Part shown: positions 60,622 to 60,960 of the stretch, piece by piece | How the letters are laid out: every line of letters begins with the position of its first letter | Position numbering within the stretch: the stretch's first letter is position 1 | IMG/VR virus record: IMGVR_UViG_2721755651_000007 | Origin: a virus | Lineage: Duplodnaviria; Heunggongvirae; Uroviricota; Caudoviricetes | Direction: 5' to 3' (one strand) | DNA length: 64,000 nt | Translations under genes and position numbers: made by a program | Notes under the pieces: generated by a model | What the model was told of the DNA's origin: nothing | The model's input: only the letters and a program-made list of their open reading frames with translations | Database searches by the model: none

Positions 60622-60960
60622 GTGCGTGCGCCGGACACGGGTGAACATCCGGCACTGACAGTTTACTGAAAGGATATTTCTCTGAAAAGTCAGAGCATAA
60701 CGCGAAAGCGCACGGCGAGGTTGCTGGTTCATAGATAGCCTGTCGTTAAATTTTCGTCGACCGTGCGCTTCCGGTTGTGGCACTCCGCGAAATGGCGCAG
60801 CGGTAAGTATGGCGGGGTTATTCCTTCCCCGTTGAGGACACCGGGTTGTCAGGTTGACCATACGCTTAAGTGACAACCCCGCTGCAACGCCCTCTGTTAT
60901 CAATTTTCTGGTGACGTTTGGCGGCATCTGTTTGCCCATGAACTGATGTCCGCCCTTTTT
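60622..60960 (+). ncRNA. candidate structured noncoding element (339 nt), second copy
   Basis: conserved with 13670..14008; terminal hairpin plus T-run. Confidence 0.3.

Follow-up and report, generated by a model that had tools for sequence, protein, structure and literature searches.

Two copies of a prophage leader, in all likelihood that of the small RNA DicF, contain a covarying four-way junction

The stretch of DNA analyzed here (the window, 64,000 nt in full) contains two prophages, A and B. The preliminary description had presented positions 60622..60960 in prophage B (copy B) as a second copy of a conserved noncoding block at 13670..14008 in prophage A (copy A). The homology itself was clear: self-BLAST of the window aligned 13673-14282 with 60625-61234 (613 nt, 91.4% identity, 850 bits, E=0), and the MAFFT alignment showed that the two stretches are homologous across their full coordinates, with 42 differences within about 339 nt. 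However, the right-hand boundary was misplaced. Homology continues for about 270 nt past 60960 and 14008, through a structured spacer and then the first 100 nt or so of the dicB coding sequence, and the inter-prophage repeat stops inside dicB of copy B, at 61234. The limits 14008 and 60960 were found to be the U-run of an sRNA terminator. Self-BLAST also showed that prophages A and B have several further modules in common.

ORFs for DicB (PF05358) and DUF1482/YdfD lie downstream of both copies. The cell-division inhibitor gene dicB is at 61130..61318 in copy B (plus strand, as are all RNA features described below; Pfam PF05358, E=2e-37; RefSeq annotation) and at 14178..14366 in copy A (plus strand; PF05358, E=6e-37), where the alignment showed a diverged C-terminal half. 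On the upstream side, a YdfC-family ORF (phrog_1744) was found at 59712-59930 in prophage B and a DUF1391/YdfA-like ORF at 12520-12753 in prophage A. The repressor of prophage A is an HTH plus peptidase S24 protein (11670-12308) and that of prophage B a 135-aa DicA-type HTH protein (58669-59076), which bears out the earlier statement that the two prophages are heteroimmune. Both copies have the dicBF-type gene order, in which an immunity repressor and small early genes precede dicF, and dicB and ydfD follow it.

The Qin prophage of K-12 MG1655 aligned with this region. Just past ydfC it has a 340-nt unannotated spacer, followed by dicF (b1574) and dicB, and the homology runs through the ydfC-dicF spacer, dicF, the next spacer and dicB, with the same order dicF-dicB-ydfD. 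The sequence printed in Fig. S1 of PMC10448788 is the same as that of the block. A 759-nt stretch around copy B was 100% identical to E. coli O157:H7 strain PV15-279, and among 5426 complete E. coli genomes, 4647 contained the block (median two places per genome, up to nine). The O157 genome compared had five places matching the 759-nt copy B query; EHEC reportedly has four dicF copies (PMC7873438, PMC11774850). Each copy is very probably the dicF region of an early-left operon of the dicBF type, in a lambdoid prophage of E. coli O157:H7, and the block in all likelihood comprises DicF, an Hfq-dependent sRNA, and the untranslated leader that is cut to release it. As a locus it is ordinary and already known, namely the DicF sRNA gene with its processed leader, and the leader has been described as the source of processed DicF (PMC10448788, PMC5069750). 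Of the earlier view of an anonymous noncoding element, the noncoding part stands (no family matches, and a frameshift of the only recurrent ORF in about 45% of homologs), but the 3' end is DicF (RF00039) and the rest is its leader.

A small antisense gene adjoins each copy. That beside copy B, at 60338..60571 on the minus strand, is a 77-aa ORF matching phrog_10348 (E=1e-47), and its start borders the block on the left, outside the RNA element. That beside copy A, at 13404..13625 on the minus strand, matches phrog_4274 (E=1e-51); its likely start codon is at 13613, because the match spans residues 5-73. The two genes are unrelated (BLASTP E=8.2), as had been noted, and from the retention of the block beside them it had been argued that the noncoding block itself is under selection. 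Such retention by itself is no evidence of this, because the block forms the upstream end of a mobile module, dicF-dicB-ydfD, that is just as well conserved on the coding side; the claim of selection holds instead through the wider homolog comparison given below. K-12 Qin differs from the O157 copies, which have the antisense gene between the upstream genes and the leader, and from prophage A, which has a CI/S24-type repressor and not DicA.

Canonical DicF with its terminator lies at 13951..14008 in copy A. The match to RF00039 (75 bits, 13952-14003) passed the gathering score of 48 bits, and the terminator scan flagged a terminator-like site at 13986-14001 followed by a T-run. Copy B has a DicF variant at 60905..60960, the start being placed by alignment with K-12 dicF (b1574). 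In a sensitive 1.1-kb search the variant scored 43.5 bits (60906-60955, E=5.8e-8), which is under the gathering score of 48 because the loop and upper stem in the 3' half of DicF are replaced. In both copies nucleotides 1-20 of DicF are identical to the K-12 DicF seed region UUUCUGGUGACGUUUGGCGG, and in copy B nucleotides 21-46 are replaced by other sequence. The copy B variant ends in a hairpin (60920-60954) plus U5, which was predicted by folding; the simple scan gave no flag there.

The 3' region of DicF pairs with ftsZ and its 5' end with xylR (PMC5069750). Pairing with the ftsZ ribosome-binding site, on which the inhibition of division is based, was estimated roughly by duplexfold, which ignores intramolecular structure and Hfq, at -27.9 kcal/mol for the canonical (copy A) 3' region; the same rough calculation, with the same simplifications, gave -18.9 kcal/mol for the copy B 3' region, scattered and off the ribosome-binding site. 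Copy B differs from K-12 DicF in its replaced 3' half, its sub-threshold Rfam score and its weaker predicted ftsZ pairing. The variant was present in 290 of the 5426 E. coli genomes, always at 99% identity or more and mostly in O157:H7 and other STEC, and no feature was annotated beneath it in those 290 genomes. As a corollary of the reading of the junction domain proposed below, the copy B cassette may retain the 5' seed for xylR/pykA/pchA-type targets and lack ftsZ pairing.

The leader folded with z-scores of -2.6 for the block of copy A and -3.4 for that of copy B. In copy B, the minimum free energy (MFE) fold begins with a 5' module at 60625..60693, consisting of H1 (60630-35 with 60648-53) and H2 (60655-59 with 60689-93, plus inner stems). 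Within the block, conservation is lowest in this module, which is also optional: unrelated sequence takes its place at loci L140, L017, L086, L148, L193, L103, and L222. It is followed by H3 at 60696..60779, a long imperfect duplex of about 21 bp in which 60696-60718 pairs with 60757-60779 around a variable tip (60719-60756). In the folds of copy A the leader (13673..13825) has the corresponding helices H1 (13678-83 with 13696-701), H2 (13702-07 with 13737-42), and H3 (13744-13768 with 13801-13825). A further helix, H0 (9 bp, 60617-25 with 60780-88), in the MFE fold of copy B was rejected, its 5' arm being non-homologous in copy A and K-12 having two uncompensated mismatches.

[quoted passage not shown] The position 137 nt before the dicF start is 60768 in copy B and 13814 in copy A, and falls within the 3' arm of H3 in both. 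H3 is the predicted first RNase III site, with a cut near 60768 or 13814 that would give the 5' end of the 190-nt DicF. Among 38 non-redundant homologs, 99% of cells were paired over the 21 pairs of H3. The changes were all one-sided with pairing kept (for example U.G to C-G in seven sequences), without compensatory pairs, and since they were only one-sided the support for H3 is its conservation together with the K-12 experiments.

Downstream of the junction, a hairpin at 60895..60916 in the folds of copy B pairs the DicF 5' seed (UGUUAUCA/UGGUGACG; 60895-902 with 60909-916), and its AAUUUU loop contains the mature DicF 5' end at 60905. RNase E prefers single-stranded AU-rich sites, so the loop suits this enzyme and is its expected site. 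The dicF-dicB spacer also forms a domain, at 60964..61113 in copy B (z=-3.5; closing duplex of 16-20 bp, 60964-60983 with 61094-61113) and at 14012..14161 in copy A (z=-5.2; closed by a 20-bp duplex), and the dicB ribosome-binding site is directly 3' of it. A 72-nt DicF form with a 3' end made by RNase III has been cited (PMC5069750, PMC9438474). Position +72 of the copy B DicF (60905+71=60976) lies in the 5' arm of the spacer duplex, which is the predicted second RNase III site, near 60976, and would give the 3' end of the 72-nt form. The predicted anatomy fits the published biogenesis of DicF: the predicted O157 duplexes are at the published RNase III positions and the AU-rich loop is at the RNase E site of K-12 Qin dicBF.

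The O157 copies would be processed as their K-12 homolog is, for which Hfq binding and an RNase E-dependent 5' end have been reported (PMC5069750, PMC10448788). Transcription would start from a repressor-controlled early-left promoter and pass through the upstream small genes into the leader. The candidates are 59175-59204 and 12393-12421, where site counts were at the chance level; the -35 element of K-12 dicBp has its aligned counterpart in TTGACC at 59175, and prophage A has a similar site at 12393, after the CI-type repressor. Read-through from the early promoter has to be assumed because the antisense gene precedes the leader in both copies, and K-12 has no such gene. The leader would then fold into H3, and an RNase III cut about 137 nt upstream of dicF would yield the 190-nt long DicF, made up of the four-way junction, the hairpin in which the DicF seed is paired, and the hairpin of the terminator. 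Mature DicF (53 nt in K-12) would result from RNase E cleavage in the AAUUUU loop. The DicF 3' end would arise by intrinsic termination or, on read-through transcripts, by way of the +72 RNase III duplex, which encloses the dicF-dicB spacer just before the dicB ribosome-binding site.

The differences between copies A and B were mapped onto the predicted helices, the check suggested in the preliminary description. There were 16 in the variable tip of H3, 17 in the upper part of the DicF terminator hairpin (where the sequence is different and a hairpin still forms), and five in the H1 and H2 loops and linker. Two stem differences changed C-G to U.G, and one broke the terminal H3 pair in copy A. 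Only two fell within the 137-nt core, one of which mends a P2 mismatch of copy A, the other opening the end pair of P3a. As 38 of the 42 differences are in loops, tips or the replaced terminator top, the substitutions respect the predicted pairing.

The part of the leader between the predicted RNase III cut and DicF forms a four-way junction of about 115 nt, at 60774..60888 in copy B (cmsearch, 152.8 bits) and 13820..13934 in copy A (156.2 bits), and cmsearch found exactly two copies of this core domain within the 64-kb window. In copy B the closing helix P1 (GUUGUGGC : GCUGCAAC, 60774-81 with 60881-88) is a long-range helix proposed by RNAalifold. It encloses P2 (60785-89 with 60796-800), P3 (60801-04 and 60807-08 with 60838-43), P3a (60813-17 with 60827-31), and P4 (60844-51 with 60871-78). 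In energy, the junction structure exceeded the single-sequence MFE by about 8 kcal/mol. Two natural variants (L257 and L004) have lost the insert from P2 to P4 and retain both arms of helix P1 as a simple hairpin.

For comparison, 271 loci were fetched, which gave 102 unique homologs of the block and 97 of the core. A scan of a genome collection with the 17-base DicF seed was dominated by chance hits from unrelated phyla and yielded just a few Enterobacterales loci that could be used. Conservation peaked at 60741-60900, at 90% or more, and exceeded that of the DicF seed; one 17-nt motif within this interval is biased because it served to fetch loci, and the second fetch had a different anchor. 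Compensatory changes were found in four of the five junction helices among divergent members. Helix P1 changes from GUUGUGGC/GCUGCAAC to GUUGUGGU/ACCACAAC in cdtI-type phages; P3 changes from CGGU/ACCG to CGGC/GCCG in phage P7; P3a occurs as CGGGG/CCCCG, CUGGGG/CUCCAG, CAGGGG/CUCCUG, and CCAGGUG/CACCUGG; and P4 changes from GUUGUCA/UGACAAC to GUUGCCA/UGGCAAC in phages P1 and P7. P2 is nearly invariant.

RNAalifold on the MAFFT alignment gave no compensatory pairs, because MAFFT had misaligned the P3a hairpin, and P3a was settled by inspection and covariance-model realignment. In the alignment made by MAFFT alone (29 sequences), 94.0% of cells were paired, against 35-62% with the partners slid; eight pairs were altered on both sides, and none of 500 shuffles attained the covariation score. 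After realignment to the model (91 distinct sequences), 96.4% of cells were paired, against 35-65% with the partners slid, eight pairs were altered on both sides, and none of 500 shuffles attained any of all five measures, figures that come from an alignment fitted to the model, with mutually related sequences from which the structure was itself derived. Apparent double changes in H1 and H2 on a further alignment (A3) were an artefact of aligning non-homologous 5' modules. Rfam 15 at E<=10 returned nothing for the junction, tRNA and 5S included, and no match overlapped 60768-60904 or 13814-13950. No prior description of the junction fold was found in the literature consulted, in which coverage of DicF and of the phage P1 genome was incomplete.

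The sequence behind the junction was variable. In 90 of the 97 unique junctions a hairpin and U-run follow within about 40-90 nt, and at least 10 types of downstream cassette were found, differing in their single-stranded seeds and having the UUUGGCGG stem start in common. All junction instances examined lie inside a repressor-controlled early operon. About 480 P1-like plasmids carry the junction. Phages P1 and P7 have a region called dicF-like in the leader of their ban operon, where helices P2-P4 are retained at 76-81% identity, with compensatory changes from U-A to C-G in P4 and, in P7, in P3, and with CUGGG/CCCAG in P3a of phage P1. The junction begins about 35 nt past the C1-controlled Pban start, with a short linker and then an intrinsic terminator behind it, again within a repressor-controlled early operon. 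This layout predicts a primary transcript of about 180 nt that would resemble long DicF without requiring the RNase III step. Unlike the O157 copies, phages P1 and P7 lack an H3/RNase III duplex and preserve the closing helix P1 poorly, with 5 of its 8 pairs retained; their linker contains no DicF seed, and downstream there are tRNA genes instead of dicB.

Several other explanations of the conserved leader were weighed. The upstream 280 nt or so might merely hitch-hike with dicF-dicB in a recently exchanged recombination module, the leader not being selected. The repeat does extend into dicB at similar identity, lambdoid prophages are mosaic, prophages A and B have other modules in common, and H3 has no compensatory pairs. 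However, the core is kept at 76-81% identity in phages P1 and P7 and in the P1-like plasmids (about 480), it has compensatory changes in helices P1, P3, P3a, and P4, it is better conserved than the DicF seed and constant while the sRNA cassette is swapped, and the substitutions between copies A and B avoid stems; we therefore regard hitch-hiking as very unlikely. Control of transcription in cis is another explanation, in which the junction, as an attenuator, antiterminator or riboswitch-like sensor, sets the balance between a stop at the DicF terminator and read-through into dicB. A highly conserved structured domain with an intrinsic terminator, less conserved, 20-25 nt behind it and a toxic gene farther downstream would suit such control, as would the hairpin and U-run behind 90 of the 97 unique junctions, the same layout in the phage P1 ban operon leader, and the terminated 1146-nt and read-through 1608-nt transcripts that were both observed in K-12 (PMC10448788). 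Against it, the cassette types had no alternative antiterminator pairing in common: a riboswitch-style antiterminator, in which the 3' arm of helix P1 pairs with the 5' arm of the terminator, was plausible for canonical DicF and not kept in other cassettes. No similarity to the HK022 put RNAs and no Rfam riboswitch or leader family at E<=10 was found, and the RNA is known to be processed into an sRNA that acts in trans. Control in cis seems distinctly improbable to us, and of the role in termination or antitermination suggested earlier, the intrinsic terminator in the block is what was found.

The block might also encode a small protein. Both copies contain a 36-aa GTG ORF (60763-60873 and 13809-13919) and long antisense ORFs (60565-60939 and 13662-13949), and some phage records have a "hypothetical protein" annotated over the stretch. 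In about 45% of homologs, however, the 36-aa ORF runs into a different C-terminus, of 31 aa, owing to a 1-nt indel in a hairpin loop; stop-free lengths on the antisense strand fall into two modes, at about 70 and 110 codons, the ORFs within the block had no Pfam or PHROG match, and conservation is uniform over codon positions, which leaves the chance of a coding function close to negligible. Nor does the left part of the block appear to be promoter or operator DNA for the divergent antisense genes, an explanation that we consider extremely unlikely. Both of these genes begin 50-60 bp from the start of the homology, and copy A has a weak minus-strand promoter-like site at 13641-13612, but copy B has no matching site, site counts were at the chance level, K-12 has the block without an antisense gene, the two genes have no relation to each other, and conservation is lowest in the 5' module. 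Promoter and terminator scans of the upstream part of the block on both strands gave nothing above chance, and the ideas of an antisense promoter and of an internal promoter were therefore dropped; no internal promoter was found in the K-12 dicF region either (PMC10448788).

The locus was also compared with other RNA systems. DicF, which is cited as the first example of an sRNA processed from an mRNA 3' UTR or from within an operon, resembles sRNAs such as SroC and CpxQ: endonucleases cut it out of a longer coding transcript, and it has an intrinsic terminator at its end (PMC9438474). DicF differs from them in the conserved four-way junction of about 115 nt that separates the upstream cut from the sRNA and persists as part of a stable 190-nt species. 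The put RNAs of HK022 are likewise structured RNAs upstream of a terminator in the early-left operon of a lambdoid phage; they consist of two stem-loops, as against a four-way junction here. A search of the whole HK022 genome with the junction model, with the cmsearch filters off, gave a best score of 9.1 bits (E=0.2). For a junction between the upstream cut and the sRNA, we know of no counterpart among the SroC/CpxQ-type examples. The dicF-dicB spacers gave weak full-length matches to STnc100 (RF02076), with a common CACCnGGAGGCACCnGGCAC hairpin; their scores of 32.5 bits (copy B) and 34.7 bits (copy A) are under the gathering score of 47, and a true STnc100 (175 bits) is present elsewhere in the window, at 48463-48671.

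For the junction itself there is a more novel reading, to which we give somewhat less than even odds: these 115 nt or so may be a conserved functional RNA domain, undescribed so far, which forms the constant 5' part of a wider phage family of long DicF-like RNAs with swapped seed-plus-terminator cassettes, spread over lambdoid prophages and P1-like phage-plasmids. Under the reading of the junction as such a domain, the near-invariant P4 loop and the P2/P3 junction may serve to bind a protein or RNA, or may determine stability, processing or termination, instead of being passive spacer; our guess is that the junction is a stabilizing or processing scaffold for the long form. What may be new are the covarying junction shared with phages P1 and P7, the swapping of cassettes behind it, and the unannotated copy B variant.

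Recognizing DicF at this locus keeps a well-studied sRNA gene from being presented as a new element. The copy B variant may regulate metabolic and virulence targets while sparing ftsZ, and it bears on how studies of multi-copy dicF deletions in EHEC are read. The part of the precursor usually regarded as spacer contains the junction, which is better conserved than the sRNA. A covarying junction that is combined with different cassettes suggests a function for the 190-nt long DicF or for its 5' domain, and suggests that phages diversify their targets by swapping cassettes behind a fixed scaffold.

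The hexamer GUUGUG at 60774-60779 in copy B, the dicF leader-dicF-dicB segment of prophage B (13820-13825 in copy A, its homolog in prophage A), has two predicted partners. It is predicted to pair with CAUAAC (60696-60701) in the outer RNase III duplex of the leader, and with GCUGCAAC (60881-88) in helix P1 of the four-way junction. These pairings are mutually exclusive, which suggests that the leader may refold once RNase III has cut.

Natural deletion variants of this region were present among homologous loci from other phages and prophages. In L257 (9002-9044) and L004 (2669-2700), junction helices P2-P4 were absent and P1 was left as a simple hairpin. 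In L130 (1621-1757), L082 (2636-2771), and L163 (5210-5346), the 5' arm of H3, the leader duplex predicted as an RNase III site, was joined to P2, with loss of the P1 5' arm as well as the RNase III 3' arm; this fusion apparently arose via recombination between two CGCGAAA repeats. The position of the junction relative to the promoter was also compared. In phage cdtI (L003:2158-2215) the junction lies about 280 nt 3' of a strong PL-like promoter, which is located after the cI terminator, whereas in phage P1 (L002:2413-2465) it lies about 35 nt past Pban and the C1 operators. Therefore, promoter-junction spacing and the requirement for an RNase III release step vary by phage type.

The conserved domain in the dicF-dicB spacer (60964-61113 in copy B, 14012-14161 in copy A) is structured (fold z = -3.5 and -5.2, respectively). 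Its closing duplex of 16-20 bp coincides with the expected position of the RNase III cut that published work assigns to the 72-nt DicF form, and the dicB ribosome-binding site follows directly 3' of the domain. The spacer interior gave full-length STnc100 matches of 32.5-34.7 bits, below the gathering score of 47, and shares the CACCnGGAGGCACCnGGCAC hairpin with STnc100. A promoter-like site, TTAACA-16-GAGAAT, is kept on the minus strand of both spacer copies (61065-61038 and 14113-14086) and is directed antisense, toward dicF, with regional site counts at chance level.

A full-score STnc100 (175 bits) occurs elsewhere in the window, at 48463-48671 on the minus strand. It directly adjoins a plus-strand match to the anti-GcvB sRNA AgvB (48402-48461, 56.6 bits), and two minus-strand tRNA genes (48784-49013) lie beside this pair. 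A comparable tRNA pair was found at 712-961, a region with 83% identity to 48740-49015. Each prophage also carries one hok/sok-type toxin-antitoxin RNA locus on the minus strand (5255-5429 and 53640-53789; Rfam sok, 113.5 and 103.9 bits), within a common module (5033-5471 versus 53415-53831, 85% identity). On its minus strand at 7906-8022, prophage A contains an ALIL pseudoknot (121.5 bits), which serves as the frameshift signal in an insertion sequence of the IS3 family. Self-BLAST of the window also showed internal repeats in prophage A, namely direct repeats of about 110-165 nt at 35867-36396 (92-99% identity) and a 166-nt direct repeat pair, 21809-21974 with 22455-22629 (86% identity).

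The DicF of copy B (60905-60960) retains the first 20 nt of the canonical sRNA, and its 3' region is replaced. It scored below the Rfam threshold, and it was predicted to pair with the ftsZ RBS far more weakly than canonical DicF does. Of 5426 complete E. coli genomes, 290 carried this variant, most of them O157:H7/STEC; identity was at least 99% in every occurrence, and none of the 290 had it annotated. Across various prophages and phages, at least 10 distinct DicF-like cassettes lie 3' of one common four-way junction (types from loci L138, L203, L196, L245, L195, L145, L271, L183, L002, and L269). Their single-stranded seeds differ and each has its own terminator loop, while the UUUGGCGG stem start is common. 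The junction appears to be a constant scaffold with an exchangeable sRNA slot behind it.
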